64,000 nt of DNA from contig NC_134025.1 of NCBI RefSeq assembly GCF_964204645.1, positions 12,152,001 through 12,216,000 of the forward strand. The letters are read 5' to 3'. Numbering within the stretch: the stretch's first letter is position 1; every line of letters starts with the position of its first letter. The notes under the pieces are model-generated. The model did no database searches. It was given only the letters and a program-made list of their open reading frames with translations, and was not told the origin of the DNA. The position numbers and the translations under genes are program-made. The stretch comes from Tubulanus polymorphus (Eukaryota; Animalia; Nemertea). Of the stretch, positions 1 to 64,000 are shown piece after piece.

Positions 1-2301
1 AGTCGTCAGCAGGTTTTAAGCATTGCCTAACAATTTATGACAATACACTATGATCAACAATTTACCATCATAAAATCAATCGCGCACCAATTTTATATAT
101 TCTTCCTAACTCCTGATTCGACCGACCATCGCAACTCTTTTTCCATTTTAAATAATCAAACCCGCTGATTTGTTCCTAGCAAGGGTGGTGGGTTTAAAGG
201 GGCGCACAAAGATGAGCGTAATATCGATTCAAGTTCAAAAGGCATTCTCACCTACATTGCTGTTCCGAGTCAGAGCACTTACAGCAGCCTCCCGTCGGGT
301 CTCTTTCTATCATACCGGTGTTGCTCACTCCACACCAGCTTTTATAGTTCGTTAAATCGGACAAACTCGGCAAACCATGAACATCTACATCAACACCCAA
401 AATGCTAGATCAGCAATATCAATCAGTTTTCGTTTAGAACTATCATAAAAATGTTCTAACGAACTTTAAATGTGCCCAAATCGGTATGGTAAGTGCTGAT
501 GAAATTTCACCGTATGGCGGTTAAACGAGCGGGACTGGTTGGTACCTTATAGAAGTTCTAGAATAAGTTGTTTAGAAGGCTTACCTAAGAAAACCACTGT
601 CGTGGCTGCTAATATAAGCACCAAATAATTCATTGTTGCAAAATTCGCTGGACAGAACTGTCGACACGATGTTTCCTAATCGATGTTCGCCTCATCCAAC
701 TAAATCATTTATTAGTAAATATATCTTATTGGTCACTGCTCATGCGGTCACAGAGGATTGGCGGTTGCTTTCAGCCATCGTGCGATCAACCGACCGAAAC
801 GAAGTCCTACTGAGGGCGGTAACAGATGCTGTAGCGTGTCAATAATGATGCCATTGTTACTAACCGTTTCAGTGCTACAATGCGCAAACATTAACAGGTT
901 CTGGGACACCATATGTCCACTTGGATCTGAAATGCTTTATCTGAAAATGATGGATCTGGACGATTTCAATATTCAACACACAATGGTGACCATGTAGAAG
1001 TCAATGACCATGAAACCGCTTTCATATAGAACTTGACATGTCATATTGATTGCGGTTACAAAAGGCGAGAACAATAAAATTACTGATCCTAATTCCATGC
1101 GAGAGATGATCATTCGTATGACAGTAATAACAAAATTCAAATATGGAGACTAAAAGATGTTGATATTTTCCTTAAAAAACCTTTTTCCACAGGACTGGTG
1201 AAGCTCAAATGTTCACAATTGCGTGGACTGGTAAAGAAAACCACCTGATACATTAAAGATTCATCCTCAAAGTAAACCATCATGAATTTCAATTAACCAT
1301 GGCAAACCAGGACGCTACCGGTATCAGAATTCAGGCCAAAAGACAGTGAGCTTTTTGGATGCAAAACGGTCACAGAACGGCTTTGTTGTGTCTGAGCATA
1401 GAAATAAATTGCAAGATATTAAAGTTTTATTTCAATGACATCATCAATTCAAGGAAGCTAGAGGTGAACTCCACTTTTGCCATTTTAGTTTAGGCTATTC
1501 TCAAAAATAAACTAGTCTTTCAAAAAATGCAATAATCCCGATGGCACATTCCACCAAGAACCACTAGTTATTATTGTAGTGATTCGGCCGCTACATAGGC
1601 CTACGTCTTCGTTCTTTCAATCATCCTGCACGAGAAAACAAGTTAGGCACTGCGACCGAGGTGTGGACGATTTGCGATTGAATACTTGAATAACGCTAAA
1701 CGACGCCGTGGTTGCGAGGATCTGGCTTTAGGAAAGCTGAAGAACATCTGGATATCACGGAGTAGCATACCACTCACTCCGTTTCACGCAATTTCACGAG
1801 GATTCTAAGTGCTTTAAGGCATCTTCGTTGTTGTTTTGTTTGCATAGTGCTACATCTTTTGAAGTTTCTAATTGATGGCAACCAAACGCGCTATTCGCCG
1901 CCCGGACCGTGGCGTTCAACCGGTCCAGCCAAATCAGATTTTCGGCCTGTGATGCAAGCGGTGTTCGTCACCTAGCCCGATCATAATTCGAATCGTGGCC
2001 AATACAATTATCTCCCAATTACCGGTATGGACATCGTCATTCGTCACGGTTGTTAATCGTCATTTTGTCAATCGTCATTCTTGCCATTTGTCAGAGTTGC
2101 CTGAGCATTGAATATTCTTTTCTTGAATAGTGGAAGGTTGGGCCTGCACTTGTAGCATAATAGGCTGTAGACAGCGGCTAATTAATCAAACAACATACTG
2201 AGTCCCACATATTTAAGTAGGAAGGGCGCCTCCGTTCCGCAAATGGCAGGTAACTCGGGTGGCTCCAATTTCCAGCTACTGAGAAGGGTGACTCCATTTA
2301 A

Positions 2302-2658
2302 CCGGCGACTCACGTGAAGTCGCGATTTTTTTTTCACAAGAGTTTCCGCCATCTTGTTTGCAGTGCGCATGTTCCCCATTCTGTTTGTAAACACAATCCA
2401 CACGTGTGCACTACACTCACTGTAGTCACAGTGCGTTCGCGGCTATCAACCGCGAACGTCCACTTCGTTCAACTCAACACGACCCGCGAACACCAGCAGT
2501 TCACCCGGAAGTTCAACGAACTCCTCGAGAATCACGACGACGTCACCGCGATACCACCAATCGATGATCGACGCTTCATAGTTGTTGGAAACGGAATCCA
2601 CTGGGACCGTGGTACAGCTAACACCCTGCTGGGCCACTGGCTCAGTGGTTTAAACTAA
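2302..2658 (+). CDS. PLE ORF1 remnant, resembling the C-terminal part of an SGNH/GDSL esterase-like domain; N-terminus missing or spliced
   Basis: Frame open 2302-2658 with no ATG. From about 2431 it reads RSRLSTANVHFVQLN...IPPIDDRRFIVVGNGIHWDRGTANTLLGHWLSGLN*, similar to SGNH block V (DGxH) plus the terminal helix. Same GC-rich codon style as the downstream RT. Confidence 0.55.
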   Translation, partial: PATHVKSRFFFHKSFRHLVCSAHVPHSVCKHNPHVCTTLTVVTVRSRLSTANVHFVQLNTTREHQQFTRKFNELLENHDDVTAIPPIDDRRFIVVGNGIHWDRGTANTLLGHWLSGLN

Positions 2659-2690
2659 GTATCAGTGAGACCAACGGGTCCACTATTGGT
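2649..2690 (+). promoter_or_regulatory. Candidate -1 programmed ribosomal frameshift signal (T TTA AAC plus stem-loop)
   Basis: ORF1 codons GGT TTA AAC TAA put the heptamer 2649-2655 in X XXY YYZ register. Hairpin AGTG-A-GACC(AACG)GGTC-CACT at 2664-2684. The -1 frame is the RT frame and has no stop from 2622 onward. Confidence 0.75.
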
Positions 2691-5117
2691 GAGTTAAATC
2701 AACCGGAATTAACCAATGCTTCTCTGATTTCTTCCATTTCCCGGTCCAACGAACACGAAGAACCGGCACCAAACCAAGCGCGACGCGATCCGGTCACCGC
2801 TCTCGGGAGCCCGGTGGTCAACCTCACACGTTCACTCCGCCTAAGTCCGGCGCAACATCAGCTACTCCGAAAGGGCCTCACTTATTGCCCGTCTCCAAAA
2901 ATCGGTTCTGATGCCGCTGCGATCGAGCGCACCAAGGGAGTGTGCCGATTCAACCGGCTAGTGAAACTCGACCATCACTTCCGAGACAAACCGGACCGCG
3001 AGGCTCCGCGTTTCCGTCTGCCCAGCAGTTGGGCTCCGGATGAAATAGAACCAGTAATCGCCGAGTTCTGCAACGACGCGCATGAATTGGCTCAACAAAC
3101 CAGGGATACGCGTCGCGTAAATGATAACCTCACTAAACAGGAACGCGAAGCCCTCCAGCAGCTGCGTGACAACACTAATATTGTCATCAAAGCCGCCGAT
3201 AAGGGTTCCGCCACGGTTATCATGGACCGCGACGACTACGTCCACGAAGCCATGCGCCAACTAGCCGATCTCGAGTATAATCAGCCGCTGCAGCAACCGA
3301 TCTTCGAACAGACCGGGGAAGAAATCCGCGAAATCATCGAAAATATGGCTCGACGAAAAATCATCCTGCTAAAAACCGCCGAATATCTATTACCACCCGA
3401 TAATCCGAAACAGAGGCAGTTCTATCTGCTTCCCAAAATCCATAAAGAACGCGAGAAGTGGACGGTACCCGATCGCGTACCGCCGGGGAGACCGATCGTC
3501 TCCGACTGCGGCTCCGAAACCTACGAAATTTCGGAATGGATCGACTACTATTTGCAGCCGATCGCCCGGAGTCACCCGTCGTACGTCAAAGATACCAACC
3601 ACTTTCTAGATATTTTGGCCGGTAAACAATTTAGCGCCGATGCGTTACTCGTCACCATGGACATCGATTCGCTCTACACGAACATCCCCCACGAAAAGGG
3701 TATCGCCAGCATCCGACAAGCTCACCGAGACAACCCAAACCCGGGACGCTCGGATGCCGAGCTGCTGCAACTACTCGAAATCAGCCTGAAGGAAAACGAC
3801 TTTAACTTCAACGAAAACACATATTTACAGGTAAAAGGTACCGCAATGAGTAAGCGTTGTGCTCCTTCTTATGCCAATATCTTTGTAGCCGAATGGGAAA
3901 AAGAAGATCTGTCCAGAAGCGAACTCCAACCATCGCTATACGCTCGGTTCATCGACGACATCTACATGGTTTGGGAACACGGCCGCGAAACGTTGATGCA
4001 ATTCATCGACGTCCTACAAACAGTGAGCCGATCCATCAAACTCAAGTTCGAAATCAGCGACACCAGCGTCAACTTCCTGGACGTAACCACTTTCAAAGGC
4101 CCGCGATTCGAGACAAGTGGCACAGTAGACACCAAAGTCTACTTCAAACCAACCGATTCGCATCAATTACTACATCGATCTTCGTTTCACCCTAAACACA
4201 CATTTTCCGGTATAGTTAAAAGTCAAATTCTCCGGTTCCGGCGCATCTGCAATAACGATTCAGACCTACACGCAGCGTCCGGAACCGTCCTTAAAGTACT
4301 CAGAGGTCGTGGCTACAAAGACCGCGAACTGCGACACATCAAAAGCCAAGCTCTACGGCACCACGCCGAACGAGATCAACGAGAACAACAACGGGCCAAC
4401 GAACCGCCGAAAAAGCGTTTACCGCTTGATATCTTACCTCACTCCGAAGCCAACCGAACCCTAGCCCGTAACATCCGAACCAGATTTACGGAACTGGCTA
4501 CGGCCACCGGCCGGTCGGACGAGGTAACCACGGTCACCGCCTACACCAAGCACAAGAGTCTCAAGGATCACCTAACTTCGTCGCAGCTCAAACCAACGGA
4601 GCCACCCCCTCCCCGAGTCCCCTCTTCACCGCATCGTAACAGAAATACTTCCGTTGTTTCCAATTCTTCTATTTCCAGGTCTACTCAAAGAACTCCGTCA
4701 ACCCGACGTCGAGGCACCAAGAAATGCAGAAAACCGAGATGTCGTACGTGTCCACTCGTCCGAGAAACAACCGTTTGCCGCAGCCACAACAAAATGCACG
4801 CGATCCGCAGCACAATTAATTGCGCGACCCGTGAAATTGTATACTGCATCGAATGCACCAAGTGCAACATGCTGTACGTCGGCTAAACCGGAATGTCTCT
4901 ACGAGAACGCGTCACTCATCACGTCTCACGCATCAGAACGAAGAATTCGACTCCAGTCTCGGACCACTTCAACCAAGTCGACCACACCCGCGAACACTTT
5001 CGGGTGTACGGTCTCCAACACCTACCAGGCTTCACGAGACCGATCCGCGAAGCAGCCGAACAAGACTGGATACGACGACTCGACACGAACACGCCCCGAG
5101 GCATGAACGTCCCGTAG
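2649..5117 (+). mobile_element. Penelope-like retroelement RT plus Cys-rich linker plus C-terminal GIY-YIG endonuclease (Neptune-like layout), probably an inactive copy
   Basis: PLE motifs VVNL..LS...LL.KGL.Y.P, IVIKAADKGSATVIMD, FYLLPKIHK, PGRPIVS, LVTMDIDSLYTNI, QVKGTAM, RFIDDI, FLDV, YFKPTD, SFHP. Linker C.KPRCRTC. Endonuclease IVYCIECTKC..LYVG*TG..LRERVTHH...VSDHF...EQDWI..L.T..PRGMN. One in-frame TAA at 4884-4886. Confidence 0.95.
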
Positions 5118-5551
5118 ACCGCCTCACTACAACAATTAACTCGTACTACTTTTTTTACAGGGATAACCCGCTGCCCGTGCACTAGTGGGGTCTCCAAACC
5201 TTCGGTTTGGTCCCCTAACCTCTATCTCTAAACCTAAACCCAATATAATGATTTTATTGTCATTTCGACAAATTAACGATTCAGTAAATGAGAGACTCCT
5301 GCTGCTTTCCAAGCTGGGAACTTTCATCGAAGCCACTGGCAGATTCCATTAAGAAGAAAAAAAACCGCTATACAATCTGTACTATCTGTCACTCCAACAC
5401 CTATCCGTTCACTGATATATTTATACATTTTGTCCGTCTGTAATATGTGTCACTCTATTCGCACGCGCTACACATTAATCAGCATATCTCGGCTGTCTAT
5501 CAACAGTAAATTCTGCATGCACCCACCATATTAGGTGTTTTGTTCCGATAT

Positions 5552-5680
5552 TAGTTCTGTCTGTTTCGCTTAGTACTGTGCGTTTCGCTTAGTATTGTCC
5601 GTTTCAGTTAGTACTGTCCGTTTCGCTAAGTGTTGTCCGTGTAACCTAGTACTGTCGTTTCTCTGAGTACTGTCCGTACC
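5552..5680 (+). repeat. Minisatellite, about 7 degenerate 19-bp units (TAGTACTGTCCGTTTCGCT)
   Basis: Head-to-tail units start at 5552, 5571, 5590 and onward, with no spacers. Confidence 0.85.
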
Positions 5681-6155
5681 GCTATCGCACATGTAGCCAA
5701 AATTGTCTTGCTCACCTCCGCGTAGTGTCCGATAAAGGTGTCTATAATGTAATGTGGCTCTCCCCTTTTCTTCAGAATGCTATTGGGACTGGATACGAAC
5801 TGGATACATTCTCCTGCACGGATTCGTCGCGATTCTACTGCGTTCCAAGCGTCTTTCCGATCATTTCGTTAAAACTCAAACGCCGCACGTTGCTCCACAC
5901 CATAACAGTCCGCCACAAAGTACGCGAGTTTGTGCCGTCCATGCGTTTTTCTGCACACAGAGTTTGCTAGCGCCCAGCGAGTCATCACGTGACATTATTT
6001 TCCGAAGATACAAGATACAAGTCTCCGGGACTATGTGCTGTTTGCCTGCTGTGTGCGGGCTGGGGGGCTGTGTTCCCTGGAGTCCACTGTGTGTGGACTA
6101 GAGGCTTTGTGCCTCGTAGGACTGTGTCCTGTTGCCTGTTGTGCGTGGGCTGGAG

Positions 6156-7401
6156 GGCTGTTCGAATATCACGGATACCGGATACCGGACACCTAAATAC
6201 CGGATACCGGATACTCGAGATTGCGGAGTATATAGCGCATCGGGTCTAAGGAGTCGTTTCCGTGCTGTTGTAAGTAGTACTGCCGCGACATACAATTTAT
6301 TTGTCAAATTGTTACAGAGGCTAACCAACTTATTTGTCAGCCTGATTACAGCCTGCTTTCACGTTTTTAGTGTCATCATCGATCTCAATATTATACATAT
6401 TTCTTTCTGAATACTGTTGTTCTTTGGTTAGGTGAAGTTAAACGTTATATTCATTTTTTATTATCTTACTTCACTGGTGATGGATATGCATTGGTGGCCC
6501 TTTTTGGTTTTCTGTAAAATCCTTTCGTTAATAGGGCTGAGTACTGCAAGGCCCTATATCTCAAGTTAGAAAGCCATAAGCGAGTCTGGCATTTGTAACG
6601 TTTCTTCTAATAAAATTTGTTTTAAAGATCTTTACAGTTTGTATTAGTTGATTTAGGATGAACACCAATGAAAAACAAGTATTTACAAACAAAGAATTAA
6701 AATTCGTTTTCTTATTTTATGGAGTAGAATATTCGGTATATTCTATTTATTGGACGATATGTCTACATTTCATTCTCAATCACAATGTCCCTAAAAATGA
6801 AATTGAGTCCATGGCGATCGTCGAAAATCAACACCCCTGGACACCAATTGTTTTGGTATAACCTTCAAAAATCAGTTCGTCGAATACCGGTACCTACCAT
6901 TTCTCTAAGTGACTATTTACCCTGATGTTAAATTTGATTCTAAAGATCATGAAAATATAGATCGTCAATAACGCTTTACTTAATTAAAATGGCCTTCTTC
7001 GTGAAACTGAATGATAAAGATATTTTGTATTGTACAGAAGCTCTGCCCAAAACGGTAACGGTCTATTCGGTAATCCGTTCAAATTGGCAGAATTATAAAA
7101 AATATTTTCTGTCCACTGTTTGTTACCGGGTCTGTCGTATGTAATCGAGTTATTACTCGGAAGCAATAAATCTGTATTGAATTGTCTATACCGGTAACAT
7201 TTGTATGCTACTTTACTTGAAAAGCATATACCGATGTATTATGAAAATAATCTAGGCCTTTTATTCTTCTACTTGATCTCACACGAACTGCCGTTTACCG
7301 CTGACCGTTAGACCCGATGCGCTATATACTCCGCAATCCCGAGTATCCGGTATCCGGTATTTAGGTGTCCGGTGTCCGGTATCCGTGATATTCGAACAGC
7401 C
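6156..7401. mobile_element. Non-autonomous TIR element with 9-bp TSD (Mutator-like MITE)
   Basis: TIRs of about 93 bp (GGCTGTTCGAATATCACGGATACCGG...CGGGTCTAA and its reverse complement at 7308-7401). Direct repeat GGGCTGGAG at 6147-6155 and 7402-7410. Confidence 0.92.
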
Positions 7402-8329
7402 GGGCTGGAGGGCTGTGTGCCCCGGAGTTTGCTGTGTGTGATAAAAGAATGGAAGGTTACGTTTAAAAAAAAGAGAAATGAATATCAAAATAAAAGTATT
7501 AATGATTTATGAATTTTAGGGCAGATAAAACTTGAGTGGTCAGGGTTGTTGGTTGTTGGTTGCCTTTCCTTCCCTCTGGTCATGTTACCGCGGCCGATGA
7601 TGCTTATATAAACCATTGTACGTTATTTTTCTTCGAGCGTTTAGGGAAGTTCCGTCCCGTAGGGCTTTTACATGTGTTGCGTTTCTTTGCGCTTGCTGTT
7701 TAGATCTTAATTTTGTTCAATTCCGCTTTATGGCTTGGGTTTGGGTTTTGGGATGTTAGTTTTGGGGTTTTTGCAATGCCCTTTCAGTGTGTTTAGGGCC
7801 GTCGCTTGGGTGGCCCCGGTTTTCCCCCATATTTATATATTTCTGCAGTATTTCCGAACAACCACACGTCACAGGGAGTGAGGATAGTACCGGTATCCAA
7901 TCCAGTATGGTTTAGACTGACTACCGAAGGCCGAATAATACAAATTTATATTAATACAATAAGTTAGTTTTATTGCAAAGGCTAAACAGTCGTCAGTTGC
8001 TATCTATCTAGCCTGCCTAGGGCTCAGTAGCATTTTCATAAGAAATAAATTTTAATTTGATTGGATTTGGTAAACGAGAACCAGTCTTCACCACCCCCGT
8101 CAGAGCGATGTGTTGAAAACTTTCAATACCTAAAGGATAGAAAACGCTGAGATACAAACTTAAGTAAAAGTCTAATTTTCCTGTTTATATAGGCATAGTG
8201 ATATTAGGTCAATAATTCTTTTCGGTATGTTTAAAATAATTCAATTCAATTAAAGTTTATTGCCTCTAGGCGTCCGATTTTTGTGCAACCCAACGGCAAC
8301 CAACAAGGACGAACCTGCGAACGTTCGTA

Positions 8330-11017: not shown

Positions 11018-11330
11018 ATTCTGTTTCAAAATGCGTTTAAACTTCCAAACAGAAAAATTCCAGCACACAGAGATTGATTTAATATCTCTCAAGTGTGTTG
11101 GAATTTTTCTGGAAGTTGAATGAGTCTCTGCAGGTTTTTTTCTGACATTTATTCCCAGCAGTGTTACCAGTTTATTTGATGGAACATGTTAGCACTTCAC
11201 CTGGTTCGCCGGTGTAAGTTTGGCAAACTTGTCCCATCTGATTCTTTTACATGCGCTGGGAAGAATATTTAACAGAACGGCCAAGTCCGCTTAATTCGTA
11301 GCTGATCAACTAGTATATCCAATATGAATA

Positions 11331-12452
11331 TTTTTAGCCCACTTGGGACTTTAGTCCCAGCGGGGCTATTGCGTTCACTTTTCGTCCGTCGTCCGTCGGT
11401 CCGTTCGTCCGTCCGTAGACGGAATCAAGTTATTTTGGGAAGTTTTGAAGACGCTTCAATGTAATGTCTTGATATTTGGGTTACACATTTATCTACCCTA
11501 GACACATCTTCAGCCCAAAAACTGGCCCTTTCAGAATCAAGATGGCCGACTGGCAGCCATTGTTGTTCGCCAAAATCAGCACTTTTTACACATTTTTGAA
11601 CTTTTTAATGGAAATTTTGAAGACGCTACAAACAATTACCTTGATCTTTCGGATATATGTGAATCCCCCTAGGGCCCATCAGCATAACAAAAATTAGGTT
11701 GATCGGACTCAAGATGGCCGTCCTATGACCTTTTTAGTGCCAAAAAATGTTAATTTTGGCCCGAATTCTGAGTCCTGTAGCTTCCTACTGGTTTGCCATT
11801 TCTCATTGCAATTTGTGATTGGTATTCTTTAGGGATGTTTTATACCTGAGACAGGTATTTTTCATCAGCCAATTATGACGCAATTGGCGGCCATCTTGGT
11901 GTCACCAGTACTCATTCATAAGTGGGAAAAAGTTTTTCCACATTATATTGATACCTAAGCGTATTTTGCTACCACAATCTATTAGAAAGTTGTAGCTCAT
12001 AATGTGTTCAATGATTGTGGTGAGTTTCAAGGTAATTGGATTTATTATATGGCCACCAGGGGACGTTGAATAATACAATATCTTCGCATTTCTTTATTAT
12101 TTTCGTACCTATGCATATTTTGTAACCACAATCAATTGGAAAGTTGTAGCTCATGACATCATCTATGATTGTTGCGAGTTTTAAGGACATTAGTTATTCT
12201 ATATGGTCACCAGGGGGCGTTGAATAGTAGAATAACTTAGTATTTCCTTATTATATTGGTACCTAGGCATATTTTGTTACCATGATCAATTGCAAAATCG
12301 TAGCTGCTGACATGTTCTATGATTGTGGTGAGTTTCAAGGTCATTGGTTTTTGTATATGGTCACCAGGGGGCGTTGAATATTGAAATTATTAGATAGTTG
12401 AGCATTTGGAACCACTTCCCAAGTGGGCATGGTGTCCCTGGACCCCTAGTTT
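11331..12452 (+). mobile_element. Helentron-associated / DINE-1-like non-autonomous element, copy 1 (3 internal 154-bp units)
   Basis: 5' T-run plus subTIR GCCCACTTGGGA with an adjacent inverted copy, a (GTCC)n microsatellite, internal tandem units, 3' subTIR TCCCAAGTGGGC, a short hairpin and a CTAG-TTT end. No TSD. Near-identical copies at 57859 and 61609. Confidence 0.85.
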
Positions 12453-12990
12453 AGGTCTCTTTCATTATTAGATTTAATTATACTCCTAGATCATAATGCA
12501 GTGGAAACTCGTTACAGCGAACTTCACGGGTGTTGCTAAAACTATGCACTTCTCTAAAACTATGCACTACTAAAACGACGACCGAAGACCTTGTAGGTGG
12601 TGCATTTTTCCAGAAAATGGTCGTACAACCTACACGTAAATAACACAATGATTCTGGGTCCCGATTATTGCATTCACTTTCACTTTTTCGTGTATTTCAC
12701 AAAGCATTGTTTGCTCAGCTAAAATGGGAAGTGGAGTTGCAGCAGAAAACGTGCGTACCTGGTGTGTTGGGGCTAAAATTCGTGTGCCTCGTAGTACATT
12801 GTACTACAGTGCCTGATTAGATATGACTTGCTCGCTTGTAGGTCTATTATGATATTTACTCGTTGTATGGCATACTTTGACAGGAAATGCATTGCGGTAT
12901 TCCATTGTTAGATCTGCGAACAGACGTATATACGGCAGTCACCAATTTATTTACAGGTCTAGAACAGTCATATACTTGACATCTTAAGTT

Positions 12991-28417: not shown

Positions 28418-29200
28418 GACGATTACAATTACAATTACAATTAGTTTATTTACTCCACAATTATACAATTGCACAGAGAAAAAAATTATTTTACAATATA
28501 CATTGCAACAATTAACATTAGAAATGTATTAAACATTTGCGTATATACAACGCCAGTTTTTTAAGGGTTTGGCAATTTGAGTTGAACATATCATACAACT
28601 TTACGTTATTGGGGAATCTCCAATAACGCTCCGGGATGTATCTAGCTCTGGATTCCTGGAAGTACGGGCAGACGAGTAAAAAGTGATATTCATCCCCCAC
28701 CGCCTCTAAATCACACTTTTGGCACAGCCTATTGGTACGGGCAATTCCACGCCACCGCCCAACTTCCACCGGTAGCCTGTGAGCTGAGCATCTAAATCTA
28801 CATAAAGTTAACTGGTCCCTAGGAGTTAATTGAGTTAGATACTTTTCCATTTTGAAACGGCATTTGATTGTTAAATACGTAACAGCAAAAATACATAAAG
28901 AGGACTCTTTACGTATTTTTGGTAACAGCCATGGTGGAATCAGTAAATTTTGCATGCCAGACTTGCATAAACTGATCCTGCAATCTCTGTTTAAGTATCA
29001 GACTCAAGTAATTCACGTTTGGAATATTTTGATTTTCCCAAATATATCCGAGCCCATTTCGGAGCAAAATGTTCTTCACAAAATCCATCCAAGAGTTAGC
29101 TTGACCATCAATATAGCTATTATAAACACAACTGTAAACCTTTGACGATAATTTATCATCAGTTATTAATTTTGCCCAAAAATTTTACAATTCTTTCACA
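28418..29200 (-). mobile_element. 5'-truncated non-LTR retrotransposon 3' end (RTE-X-like ORF2 C-terminus)
   Basis: LCRFRCSAHRLPVEVGRW..RLCQKC...VGDEYHFLLVCP zinc-knuckle region, frameshifted upstream. AATAAA followed by an (ATTGTA)n tail. Confidence 0.85.
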
Positions 29201-45125: not shown

Positions 45126-46516
45126 TCATGGGATAGGTGTTGCTCTCTTGCTGGATGAAGGTCTATGAGGATGACATTCGCAATCGCGATATCTGAATAT
45201 TTTCAAGCAGTGATTGCCATTTGACGTGTACTCGGTTACCACTAAGTGTCCTTCGGGTCCGATCATACACGTCTGAGCCGCGCCAACGTCGTCGGTCGGT
45301 CCGGCTAGTTGTAGTAACAGTTGCCCGCGTTCGGAAAATAAATTCACAGTATGGTTCACGCAATCGGCCACGATTACTTGGCCGAGTGGATTTACGCATA
45401 GGCCGGCATTAAAGAAGGACAGACCGTCGGCGTTAGCAACCGGTTGGAATTTGTAGATTACCTCGCCTCGGTGGTTGAAATATTTTACCATTTGTTCGTA
45501 AGGATCCGATGTTAATATTTCGCCTTTATCGTTGACGGTAAGGTAAACGGGATTTTTGTTAGCGCTGACGGAAAACCGGTTGAAAAGTTTACCCCCTCGT
45601 CGATACAATTCGACCGAACCATCGAAAGTCGAAATGGCAACATTATAAAACGAGTCGCAAGCCACGTCGAATGGCTCCTCTGTTACGTTGAAAAGAAACT
45701 TGTATTTTCCTTCAACGTCGAAAACTTGAACTCGTTTATTTTTCGTGTCTGCGACGACGATGTCGTCGTTCGGCATAATTCCGACACCGGAGGGTTCGTG
45801 AAATTCCCTTGGTGATTTACCGCGCTTTCCGATCACTTGTTTCAACACTCCGTGGCTGTTGAAAATCTGCAAGCGGTGGTTCTTTGCATCCGCGATGTGT
45901 ATGTCGCCAGTACTGTTTATCGCGAGTCCCCTTGGATAATAGAAATTTCCTTTCGATGAACCTCGAAAACCAACATTGAAAAGTAGTTTATCCGGCCTGA
46001 AAAAGGAGTAATATCGAATTATTCGGGTAAGCAGTTTTTAAAAAGGATTCGAATGTCTAACTGATATGTACGAGAATCGAATTATATTCTATAGCACCTA
46101 CTGCTTTTTATCCGGTTTCCGTGCTTCCTTGATGTGCATCTTGTCAAACGATTCGCATGTTTTCCGAAGGCCATCTGCAAAAAGAGACGCCTCCCAAATC
46201 CGTCTGTCCTCGTGATCTTGCATTACGGGATGTCGACAGTTGTGAGCTAGAAATTAGTGTAAACATTGAAATGATGATCGCAATATGGCTGGCGATGCAA
46301 ACTTGTCGCCTAGAAATCGCCATAGCGACACATCGCTGAGATATTGCAATATGCGCCGGCGTCCATAGCCGAAAAATGTAATAAGTAATAAGTCAGTGGA
46401 AAAATGTGTGACCTTACCCAATGTGCGCCTTTCTGGAGATATCCATTTATGATCCCTGTGAATTTCTCTGAGCAGTGGAGCTCTTTTGGCCGGCGTGTGT
46501 CTGTAGCCGAGGCCAT
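45126..46516 (-). CDS. NHL-repeat beta-propeller protein (TRIM2/3/71-type NHL domain without RING/B-box)
   Basis: Main exon 45126-45996 with repeats FYYPRGLAINSTGDIHIADAKNHRLQIF, FHEPSGVGI..DIVVADTKNKRVQVF, GQVIVADCVNHTVNLF. Upstream exons 46098-46174 and 46418-46516 are phase-compatible but tentative. Confidence 0.85.
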
Positions 46517-57858: not shown

Positions 57859-59123
57859 TTTTTAGCCCACTTGGGACTTTAGTCCCAGCGGGCTATTGCG
57901 TTCACTTTTCGTCCGTCCGTCCGTAGACGGAATCCAGTTATTTTGGGAAGTTTTGAAGACGCTTCAAGGTAACGTCTTGATATTTGGGTTACACGTGTAT
58001 CTGCCCTAGACACATCTTCAGCCCAAAAACTGGCCCTGTCAGAATCAAGATGGCCGACTAGCAGCCATTGTTGTTCGCCAAGATCAGCACTTTTTACACA
58101 TTTTTGAACTTTTTGAGGGAAATTTTGAAGACGCTTTGATCAATTACCTTGATCTTTCGGATATATGTGAATCCCCCCAGGGTACATCAACATAACAAAA
58201 ATTGGGTCGGTCGGACTCAAGATGGCCGTCCTATGACCTTTTTAGTGCCCAAAATTAACAAATTAGTTTTGGCCCGAATTCTGAATCCTGTAGCTTCATA
58301 CTGGTTTGCCATTTCTCATTGCAATTTGTGATGGGTATTCTTTGGAAAGGGATGTTTTATAACTGAGACAGGTATTTTTCATCAGCCAATTATGACGCAA
58401 TTGGCGGCCATCTTTGTGTCACCAGTACTCATTCATAAGTGGGAAAAAGTTTTTCCACATTATATTGATACCTAAGCGTATTTTGCTACCACAATCAATT
58501 AGAAAGTTGTAGCTCATAACGTGTTCTATGATTGTGGTGAGTTTCAAGGTAATTTGATTTCGTATATGGCCACCAGGGGGCGTTGAATAATACAATATCT
58601 TCGCATTTCTTTATTATATTCGTACCTATGCATATTTTGTAACCACAATCAATTGGAAAGTTGTAGCTCATGACATCATCTATGATTGTTGCGAGTTTTA
58701 AGGACATAAGTTTTTCTATATGGTCACCAGGGGGCGTTGAATAGTAGAATAACTTAGTATTTCCTAATTATATTGGTACCTAGGCATATTTTGTTACCAT
58801 GATCAATTGCAAAGTTGTAGTTCATGACATGTTCTATGATTGTGGTGAGTTTCGAGGTCATTGGGTTTTGAATATGGTCACCAGGGGGCGTTGAATAGTA
58901 GAATGACTTAGTATTTCCATATTAAATTGGTAACGAGGCATATTTTGTTACCACAATCAATTACAAAATCGTAGCTGCTGAAATGTTCTATGATTGTGGT
59001 GAGTTTCAAGGTCGTTGGTTTTTGTAAATGGTCACCAGGGGGCGTTGAATATTGAAATTGTTAGATTGTTGAGCATTTGAAACCACTTCCCAAGTGGGCA
59101 TGGTGTCCCTGGACCCCTAGTTT
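57859..59123 (+). mobile_element. Helentron-associated / DINE-1-like element, copy 2 (4 internal units)
   Basis: Same termini as copy 1. Removing it rejoins TGTCAGGG-TTT-CCCTTAGCC, an insertion into a T-run with no TSD. Confidence 0.87.
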
Positions 59124-59291: not shown

Positions 59292-61460
59292 ATACTTTCA
59301 CCGGTTGTCCTTTCTAGATTGACAAAGTCAAAAAAAAACTTCCTTGATAACATCATTGTCTAAAAATCGTAGACACACTGAGAGAACTTCTTGGTTGGCA
59401 TAAGTATCGGTTACTTCGTCAGCTATAATAGCAAACAAAGCATCAGGATGTTGCAGACATTTGGTTAATTTTTCTCGAATTTGAAGTCCAATAATATTAA
59501 GAATATCATTCTGTACAGTCTTTGAAGTATATTTTGCATTTCTTTTACCAGTTTCAAGATGTTCACTGAAGACTTTGTCGTGTTTGCCAAGTAGATCAAG
59601 AATGGCCAAGAAGTTTCCCCGATTAGAAGTAGTAGATGTATGATCATCTCGATGACCTCGGAGCGGGATATTCTGCTTTCCACAGAAGATGACCGCTTCC
59701 ACAACAGTCCGTAGAATATGAATGTTTTTTTCGAAAATCTCTTTTGACTTTTCACTCATACAATGACCGTTGATTCTGGTCTTTTCACAGAATCTTTCAA
59801 AAGAATAGCATCCGACATAGCATTTTTATGAAAATCGGTTTTTTCGTGTTTATCTAAGATTCCGTCAGAGCCTTTTGCGCGGCCATAGTTTTTGAAAGCA
59901 CAGGAAACTAACTGTCCAGTTTTCACGCGTCGATCTTTAGGAGGAAACATAACGCAATACTTGCAGAGACCGCCCTGCAATGCTGGCAAATAGGCTTAAC
60001 ATGGATAATCAGAAAGCCAACTTCTCTGGAATCTCAATGTAATATATCGTTGTTTCGACGGCTTGTAGATCAATTGATGTTCAAATTCGTAGTTGTTTCC
60101 CGGTATGAAATGATTGTCCAAATAAGCAACCTTCTCTACGTTATCTGAAAAGAAAATTATTGTTATTTAGTAGTATTTAGTCATATGTTTAATAATGGTT
60201 ACATGCGTTACTTTTTAGATTTGCATAGAATAGCTGATGTCATGCTATGACAAATATTTCGAATGTTAAGGAAAATTATACCTATCATATCGCCGATTGA
60301 GTTGTTGTTCTCATCACCCTCCACTTCTTCATTGATGACATCATGTCCCTCTGACGATTCATCGTGGTCTAAAAAGTTGACGGATTCAACAACCACTGGC
60401 GCACCAGATCTACAGAATATGAAAATATTCTAATACTTATGTACCCCTGTCAGCATGCTTATTATTTAAACTGCCCTTTTTGTATCAATGCAAATATCAC
60501 AGGAAGGTTTATGTGCCGATGAACATATTTACCCTATTCGAGGTGCATGTTCCTCCAATGCCGCATCAATATGTTCTGCAGGTTCCACATCGGGATGTAC
60601 AATAACAGGTTCGACAGTCGTCACACCAGATCTACATAAAGAAATTGATAATAGGCTCTTATGCAAAATCCTAATACGGCAATTTCATCGGAAAAACACG
60701 TTTAGCAGATTTTCAGTGCCCTTTTTTAAGATAAGAAAACGCGGGTGAAAACTATGTGCCCCTATCAGTATATTTATCGCATTTTAAGTGCCCTTTTTTA
60801 TCAAAACAAATACCATAGACAGTGTGCCAATGAGCATATTTACTCTAATCGAGGTGCATGTTCCTCCAATGCCGCATCAATATGTTCTGCAGGTTCTGCA
60901 TCGGGATGTACTATAACAGGTTCGACAGCCGTCACACCAGATCTACATAAGTTGATAATAGGCTCTTATGCAAGATGGTAATACGACAACGTCAATACCA
61001 AGCATGTCTATACCAAGCATGTCTACCACATTTTCAATGCCCTTTAAAGATTTGAAAACATGGGTGAAAAATGTGCCCCTATATCAGTATATGAGAATGA
61101 ACTATGTTCAATAATATGCCCCTGATAAAATTCTCATCAGAATCATATTAATCCATTCTAGTGCCACCAAATACATCAGTTATGACGGGACAGACTAGGC
61201 CTACTAGTAGTACTATGTCCTCCGTTCGACGAACGAATTCTGTCGTGTTTCAACGTCAAAATTTCTATCTGATCACTATCTTTACCTGAACAAATCTGTA
61301 ATCTTTGCTGTCTTCGACGCCGCCGCAATATTTTCCTGCTTTTTTTGTTTTCAATATCTTTCTTTTCGCGGCATATTCAGAGAAAGTTAATAAAAAAATT
61401 TCTTATCACTTCAGCTAGCGTAAGGTCGCCATGTTGTGTACCGAAACGCGGCCCCGGAGA
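59292..61460 (-). pseudogene. hAT transposase pseudogene (TTF-type zinc finger plus DUF4371, PRKRIR/ZMYM1-like), intron-containing, 3'-truncated
   Basis: RFQRSWLSDYPC*AY...GGLCKYCVMF, HEKTDFH, IFCGKQNIPLRGHRDD..NRGNFLAIL, NAKYTSKTVQNDIL, FAIIADEVTD..QEVLSVCLRF. Stops and a frameshift at about 59757. Confidence 0.88.
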
Positions 61461-61608
61461 TAGACACCGGACAACGCGAGGCGGCAAACAGCCGGCGCAG
61501 GAGCACTGGATTTTTCAGCAGCACGTTTTTTAAAAAGGGCACTTGTCCAAAAAGGGGTGGGTTCGAACCCACGGAAGCTAACATGATATAAGGCGATATA
61601 ACAGGCTA

Positions 61609-62880
61609 TTTTTAGCCCACTTGGGACTTTAGTCCCAGCGGGCTATTGCGTTCACTTGTCGTCCGTCCATTCGTCCGTCCGTCCGTAGACGGAATCCAGT
61701 TATTTTGGGAAGTTTTGAAGACGCTTCAAGGTAACGTCTTGATATTTGGGTTATACATGTATCTACCCTAGACACATCTTCAGCCCAAAAACTGGTCCTG
61801 TCAGAATCAAGATGGCCGACTAGCAGCCATTGTTGTTCGCCAAAATCAGCACTTTTTACACATTTTTGAACTTTTTGAGGGAAATTTTGAAGACGCTTTG
61901 TTCAATTACCTTGATCTTTCGGATATATGTGAATCCCCCCAGGGCCCATCAACATAACAAAAATTGGGTCGGTCGGACTCAAGATGGCCGTCCTATGACC
62001 TTTTTAGTGCCCAAAAATGTTAATTTTGGCCCGAATTCTGAGTCCTGTAGCTTCCTACTGGTTTGCCATTTATCATTGCAATTTAAGATGGGCATTCTTT
62101 GGAAAAGGATGTTTTATACCTGAGACAGGTATTTTTCATCAGCCAATTATGATGCAATTGGCGGCCATCTTTGTGTCACCAGTACTCATTCGTAAGTGGG
62201 AAAAAGTTTTTCCACATTATATTGATACCTAAGCGTATTTTGCTACCACAATCAATGAGAAAGTTGTAGCTCATAACGTGCTCTATGATTGTGGTGAGTT
62301 TCAAGGTAATTGGATTTTGTATATGGCCACCAGGGGGGCGTTGAATAATACAATATCTTAGTATTTCTATATTATATTCGTACCTATGCATATTTTGTAA
62401 CCACAATCAATTGGAAAGTTGTAGCTCATGACATCATCTATGATTGTTGCGAGTTTTAAGGACATTAGTTTTTCTATATGGTCACCAGGGGCGTTGAATA
62501 GTAGAATAACTTAGTATTTCCTTATTATATTGGTACCTAGGCATATTTTGTTACCATGATCAATTGCAAAGTTGTAGTTCATGACATGTTATATGATTGT
62601 GGTGAGTTTCGAGGTCATTGGGTTTTGAATATGGTCACCAGGGGGCGTTGAATAGTAGAATGACTTAGTATTTCCATATTAAATTGGTAACAAGGCATAT
62701 TTTGTTATCACAATCAATTACAAAATCGTAGCTGCTGACATGTTCTATGATTGTGGTGAGTTTCAAGGTCGTTGGTTTTTGTAAATGGTCACCAGGGGGC
62801 GTTGAAAATTGAAATTGTTAGATTGTTGAGCATTTGAAACCACTCCCCAAGTGGGCATGGTGTCCCTGGACCCCTAGTTT
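61609..62880 (+). mobile_element. Helentron-associated / DINE-1-like element, copy 3 (4 internal units)
   Basis: Same termini, microsatellite and 154-bp units as copies 1 and 2. Confidence 0.87.
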
Positions 62881-62912
62881 ATGTAAGAACGACCGACACG
62901 GCGGTCCAATGG

Positions 62913-63896
62913 TTAAGCGTACGACATTTCGATCTCGCACGCCACGCAGTCAACGGGCATGTCGTCAAATCCGTAGATGACCATGTCTCCCAGCGGCAAC
63001 GGGTGCACATGCACTTCACCGAAAGGCGCCGAAGAATTACGCAACGGCGGATCCCAAGTAATCTCGGCTGCGATCACTATTTTACTGCAGAATGCACACG
63101 AGAAGTGCGCCGAAGGGATTCCTCGGTAAATTGCGGGTCTACCGTTGCACGTCGGGTGCTTGTGCACTACCACTCGCTGCGTGGTCTCGGGTCCAGTCTG
63201 AAATTGTTGCTGTTCTTTTACCGGTCGAGGAGCGTCCTCCGCGGTCACGGGCGGAACGATCGGCCTGAGTTGGGACTCCTGGGTGATTTTAATACGAGTC
63301 GGCATTGCCCCACCAGTTCTGGAACCCGGCACCGAGTTTTTCCAGCGAATATGGTTCTGGGAGGGTCCTGTTCCGCTCCTCCAGTTCTCTCTTACGTTTC
63401 TCTTGAAGCCTGCACCTCTCCGCTCGCTAACCTCCCTCCTCCGTCGCTCCTCCACACGCTGCTTATTCGCGGTTTCTTTCGACGCTGCAGCTTCGGCTGC
63501 CCGGCGTTCCCGGCTAGCGTGAGTAACTCGCGCAACGCGTCTTTTAAGCTCCCGAGCACTGTCATTTGACGACTGTTCCGCGATGGAACTATGGGCCGCA
63601 TCTAGGACAGATGGGTCCAGTTTGGATAGAATTGGCGACGGATCTTTCGCCGGCAAGCATTTCGACGATGGAGAATTAGTGGTTTGCGGCTCCGACGGCG
63701 GAGAATTAACGGTCTGCGGCTCCGACGAAGAATTAGCGGTCTGCGGCTCCGACAAAGAATTAATGGTCTGCGGCTTCGACAAAGAATTATTTCTCGCGCG
63801 TTTCGTAGGTGGTTCGCCCTCATCCAGGGAGACAGGGAGGCTGGTCCCAGAGCTGCTCCACGACTTTCGTCGGGGTCCGGCGATCCCGGCGCGCAT
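62913..63896 (-). CDS. Orphan intronless ORF (327 aa), low-complexity/basic N-terminal half with a C-terminal CxxC...CxxC; possibly transposon- or virus-derived
   Basis: GC-rich uninterrupted frame in AT-rich surroundings. About 27-bp coding repeats (SEPQTxNS) at about 63673-63790, NLS-like PPTKRAR, CAFC and CVAC. Confidence 0.45.
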   Translation of the reverse strand: MRAGIAGPRRKSWSSSGTSLPVSLDEGEPPTKRARNNSLSKPQTINSLSEPQTANSSSEPQTVNSPPSEPQTTNSPSSKCLPAKDPSPILSKLDPSVLDAAHSSIAEQSSNDSARELKRRVARVTHASRERRAAEAAASKETANKQRVEERRRREVSERRGAGFKRNVRENWRSGTGPSQNHIRWKNSVPGSRTGGAMPTRIKITQESQLRPIVPPVTAEDAPRPVKEQQQFQTGPETTQRVVVHKHPTCNGRPAIYRGIPSAHFSCAFCSKIVIAAEITWDPPLRNSSAPFGEVHVHPLPLGDMVIYGFDDMPVDCVACEIEMSYA

Positions 63897-64000
63897 GTCT
63901 CCGGATCAAATCGGCCCGAGAGCCCGTCTTCCCGCACGCAAAGTTTTCTTAGTTTGTTCTGTTGGTGTTTTCCTGGGGAACTAAGTTGTTTATAATGCTT

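Follow-up and report, generated by a model that had tools for sequence, protein, structure and literature searches.

Penelope-like elements (PLEs) are telomerase-related retroelements, in which frameshifting was reportedly first described for the bdelloid Athena/Terminon elements. Here, we analysed a PLE copy in a 64,000-nucleotide stretch of DNA, hereafter called the window, from the ribbon worm Tubulanus polymorphus (contig NC_134025.1, positions 12,152,001 to 12,216,000). In this copy an upstream open reading frame (ORF1) runs into a reverse transcriptase (RT) frame at a putative -1 frameshift site, and the junction was compared with those of related loci. The abstract of PMC8557442 presents canonical endonuclease-bearing (EN+) PLEs as single-ORF elements. 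The legend of Fig. 1 of that paper, and the corresponding preprint legend, states that a frameshift with a pseudoknot can set off the ORF1 of PLEs; the clade is not named in the legend. The family described here resembles the arrangement in that legend in that a frameshift, accompanied by an RNA structure on the 3′ side, apparently joins ORF1 to a PLE RT, but it is EN+, its ORF1 carries an esterase, and the candidate structure is a bulged hairpin instead of a pseudoknot.

Two-ORF Neptune elements with an esterase in ORF1 are already in print. The esterase of Neptune1_Ren spans S383-S538 (supplement of PMC3905857), and canonical Neptune-like PLEs of fish and mollusks carry esterases (PMC5408684). 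Like the window family, these elements have a C-terminal SGNH esterase in the upstream protein and an RT, a Cys linker and a GIY-YIG endonuclease downstream; unlike for the window family, neither a frameshift or slip site nor a stimulator or NADAR domain is mentioned in the passages on them in the two papers. The active killifish Neptune element repeat.CL27 also has two ORFs (420 and 2004 nt), but its description has them as non-overlapping, leaves ORF1 unidentified and mentions no frameshift (PMC12602865). The viral -1 frameshifts, as outlined in PMC5009743 for the U_UUA_AAC site of the IBV coronavirus and for retroviral gag-pol, share with the present family the heptamer, its phase, a spacer of 5-9 nt, a 3′ structure and an enzyme in the -1 frame. 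They differ in that here the carrier is a telomerase-related retroelement, ORF1 has no Gag match and the stimulator is small. Furthermore, the ZfL2-1/CR1 ORF1 protein is described with a helical part, a linker and an SGNH esterase (PMC3905857), and YbiA-type NADAR domains are described as captured by an Ectocarpus Gypsy element and by the ORF1 of an oyster Tx1 element (PMC12477816); these belong to different retroelement classes.

In the literature searched, no published description of the present slip site, of the bulged hairpin or of a NADAR domain in PLEs was found, although Fig. 1 of PMC8557442 and Repbase entries may hold one, and the legend of that figure may refer to an EN+ precedent. 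Parts of the two-ORF esterase/frameshift layout have been published. From the comparison below, we put at roughly 90% the probability that in this family a conserved U_UUA_AAC heptamer, the ORF1 stop and a bulged-A hairpin give a -1 slip that yields an ORF1-RT-endonuclease fusion.

The ORF1-RT junction in the window and in related loci

The two frames overlap in the ORF list, ORF1 covering 2302..2658 and the RT frame 2622..4886. As the initial annotation had stated, the heptamer is in X_XXY_YYZ phase and adjoins the ORF1 stop (GGT TTA AAC TAA at 2647-2658), and the RT is read in the -1 frame. No Met occurs in that frame before residue 201 (nt 3222), which is some 117 residues beyond the conserved KGL motif. 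The upstream frame does end in heptamer and stop, but what had been called ORF1 comprises only the back half of an esterase and lacks an ATG. By way of chance background, the plus strand of the 64 kb holds 339 XXXYYYZ heptamers, and TTTAAAC occurs on it 6 times. The chance of such a heptamer is not negligible at the level of the window, and its significance rests on relatives; a single copy cannot decide the frameshift question.

For the family test, 367 matches in metagenomes were confirmed and the best 80 loci among them taken, at 35-56% identity. Seven loci, truncated or broken ahead of the RT N-terminus, were dropped before counting, leaving 73 evaluable ones. An esterase ORF1 was detected in 68 of these 73, and in all 68 (69 including the window) the RT lies in the -1 frame, with none in frame. 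The offset is thus not a private indel, and these loci have two ORFs, not the single one that canonical EN+ PLEs carry. Clustering at 80% RT identity gave 52 families besides the window, which reduces the relatedness of the sample and does not remove it. With the window counted, 3 of the 53 families lack a heptamer and were left out of the structure tests, so that 50 junctions remained; a further 4 without the KGL motif were left out of the count of ATG codons, which covers 46.

The heptamer proved to be conserved. TTTAAAC is exact in 35 of the 52 families and a recognised slip heptamer is present in 48; besides TTTAAAC, there are other XXXYYYZ heptamers in 7, GTTAAAC in 4, GGTAAAC in 1 and GGAAAAC in 1, and the four families without a recognised heptamer have CTTAAAC (1) or none (3). 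G_UU, G_GU and G_GA are the exceptions given with the slip heptamers in PMC5009743, where U_UUA_AAC is counted among the most shift-prone sites. In the RT bodies, in-phase TTTAAAC occurs at only 16 of 31,111 codons. Moreover, all 41 Leu-Asn junctions use TTA AAC, while in the ORF1 background TTA makes up 278 of 1962 Leu codons (14%) and AAC 835 of 1553 Asn codons (54%). Protein conservation does not explain the heptamer, because this synonymous choice is fixed; the comparison indicates that the heptamer is kept, in X_XXY_YYZ phase, beyond the need of the protein. The stop follows 0 or 3 nt past the heptamer in 45 of 50 families, window included, and an ATG in the RT frame ahead of the first conserved block is found in only 3 of 46.

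Nine genome-bin loci were also fetched, and L081-L084 (4/4) have the esterase, the -1 offset and an in-phase slip heptamer. In the distant L086 and L089 a -1 ORF lies upstream, with no esterase match and no slip site near the ORF stop; L088 has neither, and the distant protein P0122 also lacks the layout. In a FastTree tree of the fetched sequences only, whose deep nodes are weak, the layout extends across the whole esterase-bearing part and the window copy sits on a long branch. No related loci were found in viral contigs. On these comparisons, the two-ORF frameshift layout can be assigned only to the esterase-bearing clade.

The stem-loop proposed in the initial annotation (AGTG-A-GACC/AACG/GGTC-CACT) is the predicted fold of 2656-2700, at -8.9 kcal/mol, but taken alone it is within chance (z -1.17; 24 of 200 shuffles equally good). 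For the segment 2630-2720 another fold wins (z -2.24), in which a loop contains the slip site. The relatives were examined with a prior on where the bulge should lie, taken from the window copy. An A is present at +13 in 34 of the 50 junctions, and a strict 3-bp/bulge/3-bp motif at +13 in 14. Placed elsewhere, the motif is met in 0-5 junctions, and 500 shuffles gave 0.88 on average and 5 at most. The folding z averages -1.57 at +4..+40, compared with -0.49 to +0.33 in four control windows. The 5′ strand makes 5.16 of 8 pairs with its own 3′ region and 4.36 with those of other families (0 of 100,000 permutations as good), and the +13 bulge is the best-scoring of six hairpin models. In a subset of 18 well-paired sequences, selected for that property, positions +10, +11 and +16 vary between C-G, G-C, A-U and U-A pairs. 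The spacer of 8 nt lies within the 5-9 nt rule given for -1 frameshift structures in PMC5009743. A CCAA/TTGG pseudoknot, which had been suggested as an alternative to an extended stem, finds no support in the families: in the 18 sequences, loop-to-downstream complementarity runs to 4.33 in self and 4.06 in cross comparison, and the pseudoknot was rejected as stimulator. Folding and self-complementarity together point to a conserved 3′ structure 5-9 nt downstream, with the bulged hairpin, not a pseudoknot, as the candidate stimulator.

Several observations weigh against this interpretation. The hairpin is weak, at about -9 kcal/mol, and 36 of the 50 junctions fail the strict bulge test; many families have mismatched hairpins and some lineages a different one. 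The table of pair types leans towards the model, as its 18 sequences were chosen for pairing. RNAalifold found no consensus structure on a MAFFT alignment of 34 hand-picked junctions, probably due to differing loop lengths. GA(G) at +12..+14 doubles as a Glu codon in the RT frame. The family counts are not independent, the families being related. Finally, in the protein record P0120 esterase and RT share one frame and the join reads ...FLN-LVISP, as a transframe product or a correction by a gene caller would look, and the protein record P0123 has a weak ORF1-like part in the RT frame (E 0.0013, probability 19%).

Other explanations of the junction have to be considered. That the window copy carries a private 1-nt deletion in a normally single long ORF, beside a heptamer arisen by chance, would agree with its decay (stop at 4884), with the abundance of XXXYYYZ heptamers on its plus strand and with the in-frame protein P0120. 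The identical -1 offset in every relative with a detected esterase refutes this at the family level, the stop adjoins the heptamer at the ORF1 end across the tree, and only one of the six proteins found above 1320 aa has even a weak ORF1-like part, a search that is weak evidence; a private deletion has practically no chance of being the answer. The RT could instead come from a message or start of its own, by splicing into the RT frame, by reinitiation after the ORF1 stop or from a non-AUG start. PLEs are described as retaining introns (PMC8557442). The NCBI gene model LOC141902624 (P0001) begins MA-EPAPNQ, which probably stems from a splice 2249/2761 bypassing the junction, and AG is common at +13/+14. 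However, the first exon of P0001 lies outside the homology of the element and is not a family feature, and the trinucleotide at the would-be acceptor is GAG in 24 of 50 junctions and CAG in 3, after sequence with a pyrimidine fraction of 0.48. Such a base composition makes a poor splice acceptor, and an acceptor at +13/+14 was rejected on this ground. A usable ATG is limited to the 3 of 46 families mentioned above, and a separate RT message would leave the fixed TTA AAC codons unexplained; we consider it very improbable.

The heptamer and hairpin could also form a conserved RNA element that serves a different step, for instance internal priming or binding of the RT, with the -1 offset bridged otherwise, for example by polymerase slippage. 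In the anole Poseidon element, reverse transcription is described as starting within a stem-loop that lies in the ORF's 5′ part (PMC11167929), and conservation of the bulged A exceeds what would seem necessary for a simple roadblock. Against this, the variant heptamers (AAATTTC, TTTTTTA, AAAAAAC, GGAAAAC) retain the -1 re-pairing rule and the phase, and there is no long homopolymer for slippage, so that this explanation appears very improbable; a frameshift role and another RNA role need not exclude each other. Comparison of the sequences establishes four things besides the -1 offset: the heptamer, its place right where the esterase domain ends, the geometry of the hairpin and an RT without a start codon. 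On this evidence the -1 frameshift signal is taken to be real and conserved, and it is probably functional.

ORF1 proteins of the relatives

Complete ORF1s of the relatives are about 420-960 aa long. According to alignment and modelling, they start with a conserved helical domain (about 125 aa), which may be followed by a NADAR domain; then come a linker rich in Pro, Ser and Thr, modelled at low confidence, and a C-terminal esterase. ORF1 is not Gag-like and has no Gag match. The helical domain (L042:246-700 and equivalents) has the pattern HH...FIKPA...W...HY and is confidently modelled; it has no Pfam match in 17 ORF1s and no fold match among those listed, and homology with the pre-RT region of the distant P0122 was not detected. 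It is a candidate RNA-binding or multimerising domain.

Pfam GDSL_2 was matched in 11 of 17 full-length ORF1s, all under the cut-off. The S, G, N and H blocks of SGNH esterases align in the relatives, while the window retains the last block only. In the model of the L042 ORF1, the predicted esterase matches PAF-AH and TesA structures; ahead of these, the top fold matches are those of NADAR, 2b3w and 8bau (YbiA and a Phytophthora NADAR). Pfam NADAR (PF08719) was found in 9 of 17 full-length ORF1s, 8 over the cut-off. Purpose-built profiles found it in 19 of 52 families; this count was made locus by locus, and neighbouring copies may contribute to it. It lies mid-ORF1 in L007, L016, L022, L038, L042, L054, L059, L064 and others, with a patchy distribution on the tree, and is absent from the 5′-truncated window copy. 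An independent profile search of proteins gave 43 ORF1 homologues, of which 40 have NADAR, a count biased by shared words, and 29 of the 43 end exactly in xLN. NADAR and an esterase within one PLE ORF1 were not found in the literature searched.

Identity and state of the window copy

The features of the window are collected in Table 1. The RT frame contains ADKG and the RT motifs, with a Pfam RVT_1 match over RT residues 338-476 that is under the curated cut-off. At E<=1e-20 it matches 1591 relatives, GIY-YIG (PF01541) being present in many of them, and an NCBI protein labelled Tubulanus polymorphus is identical over 78% of the RT query. The CCHH motif of EN+ PLEs, with two Cys between GIY and YIG, is present (IVYCIECTKCNMLYVG, then His residues downstream). 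A CX2-5CxxC finger in the RT-EN linker defines Neptune and is shared with Nematis (PMC8557442, section 3); under that definition, the CX4CX2C finger of the window, DKG and the two Cys that separate GIY from YIG fit Neptune or Nematis. We assign the element to the Neptune-type EN+ PLEs because of the linker zinc finger and the esterase ORF1.

Table 1 Features of the window, in window coordinates.
Feature	Position	Strand	Basis and remarks
Slippery heptamer U_UUA_AAC (TTTAAAC), X_XXY_YYZ phase	2649..2655	+	sequence; relatives
ORF1 stop codon adjoining heptamer	2656..2658	+	sequence; relatives
Candidate stimulator, hairpin of 4+4 bp, a single A bulged at 2668 (position +13), 8-nt spacer	2664..2684	+	fold; relatives
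ORF1 remnant, C-terminal half of SGNH/GDSL esterase-like domain, ends ...IHW...HWLSGLN-stop	2431..2658	+	no ATG; profile match
ORF2 frame (-1): PLE reverse transcriptase, thumb, Cys linker, GIY-YIG endonuclease	2622..5117	+	ORF list, Pfam, relatives; no start codon of its own; stop at 4884-4886
Linker zinc finger CX4CX2C, CRKPRCRTC, Neptune/Nematis mark	4725..4751	+	translation; present in most relatives listed
Region of the element's 3′ end: GCC(A/C)GTGC motif at 5173, UUCG-capped hairpin, CTAAACC-like repeats	5118..5250	+	motif in relatives; fold
Three repeat copies, 92-96% identical, internal units of about 154 nt	11329-12456, 57859-59123, 61607-62884		
Presumed C-terminal zinc-finger fragment of a long interspersed element (LINE)	28518-28997	-	by eye
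Presumed NHL-repeat host exon	45126-46037	-	by eye
Presumed hAT/ZMYM-like transposase fragment	59328-59825	-	by eye
GC-rich ORF, 330 aa, noted by eye	62913-63905	-	

The window copy can be described as a dead, 5′-truncated and mutated relic that retains the frameshift signal, and neither protein could be made whole; it is considered dead because a single in-frame stop interrupts the endonuclease, with homology resuming past it, and because the upstream frame has no ATG. The ORF1 profile of the relatives matches the window at positions 91-170 of 170 (E 4e-15), and the ORF1 remnant matches P0120 in BLASTP (E 8e-5). The profile search found no remains of the missing ORF1 front upstream of about 2430, which places the truncation inside the esterase. 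There is no second copy of the element within the 64-kb window, and no pseudo-long terminal repeat or tandem arrangement at the truncated copy. Tandem units are seen in L081 (L081:98-8921, period 5441 nt, each unit with ORF1 then RT, in a record titled bacterial genome) and in L084; L081-L087 look like animal retroelement DNA inside prokaryote assemblies. The gene model P0001 appears to be the dead retroelement with a borrowed first exon (window 2243-2249, 2761 onward).

Rfam gave no hammerhead match in window 1-8000 or in the 11 of 89 loci scanned, where minimal PLE hammerheads may score under the Rfam thresholds, and no frameshift element in the same sequences. The fold of the UUCG-capped hairpin at the 3′ end is within chance (z -1.04). 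GCC(A/C)GTGC (window 5173-5180) occurs in 10 of the 39 families whose 3′ sequence was long enough, often with CCTAAC-type telomere-like repeats after it. A second conserved element of the 3′ untranslated region, GTCTCCTGAAG-CTCTG...CTTCAGTAAA, with apparently co-varying arms, is present in 10 of 39 families (L004, L037, L038, L042, L052, L055, L066 and others). It has no Rfam match in the loci scanned, and is possibly an RT-recognition structure or a ribozyme.

Proposed mechanism and its meaning for the family

The initial annotation had proposed that a -1 slip produces a minor ORF1-RT-EN fusion. At the family level the offset and the heptamer support this, but the window copy itself is dead and the pseudoknot is not supported. 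In the mechanism that we propose, most ribosomes would terminate at the stop and release ORF1, with its helical domain, optional NADAR, disordered linker and esterase, as an abundant component of the ribonucleoprotein. The hairpin would make the ribosome pause while tRNA-Leu and tRNA-Asn occupy the heptamer, and tandem slippage in a minority of ribosomes would give ...GLN|LSISETNG and be the main route to the enzyme. The slip would thus set a high ratio of ORF1 to enzyme, as in gag-pol. The esterase may serve in membrane targeting, by extrapolation from what is proposed for ZfL2-1 in PMC3905857, and NADAR may remove ADP-ribose, which is also an extrapolation.

A wider picture can be offered tentatively, and we hold its chances to be somewhat below even. 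A large and old branch of EN+ PLEs, filed as single-ORF, would have two ORFs and would make its RT chiefly by a coronavirus-type -1 frameshift, with a small bulged-A hairpin that has not been described before. Its ORF1 would combine a lipid esterase with an ADP-ribose-removing NADAR, possibly countering host ADP-ribosylation, and none of this has yet been described for EN+ PLEs.

If the frameshift is true, the annotation and study of a widespread group of animal retroelements would change. The real enzyme would be an ORF1-RT-EN fusion of about 1200-1700 aa, compared with the ORFs of 720-770 aa given by gene callers, and this size matters for reconstituting Neptune transposition. Moreover, gag-pol-style control would be present on the branch closest to telomerase. 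The family would offer some 50 naturally occurring versions of a minimal frameshift cassette in which the bulged A is fixed, and its NADAR domain points to a testable link of retrotransposition with ADP-ribosylation.

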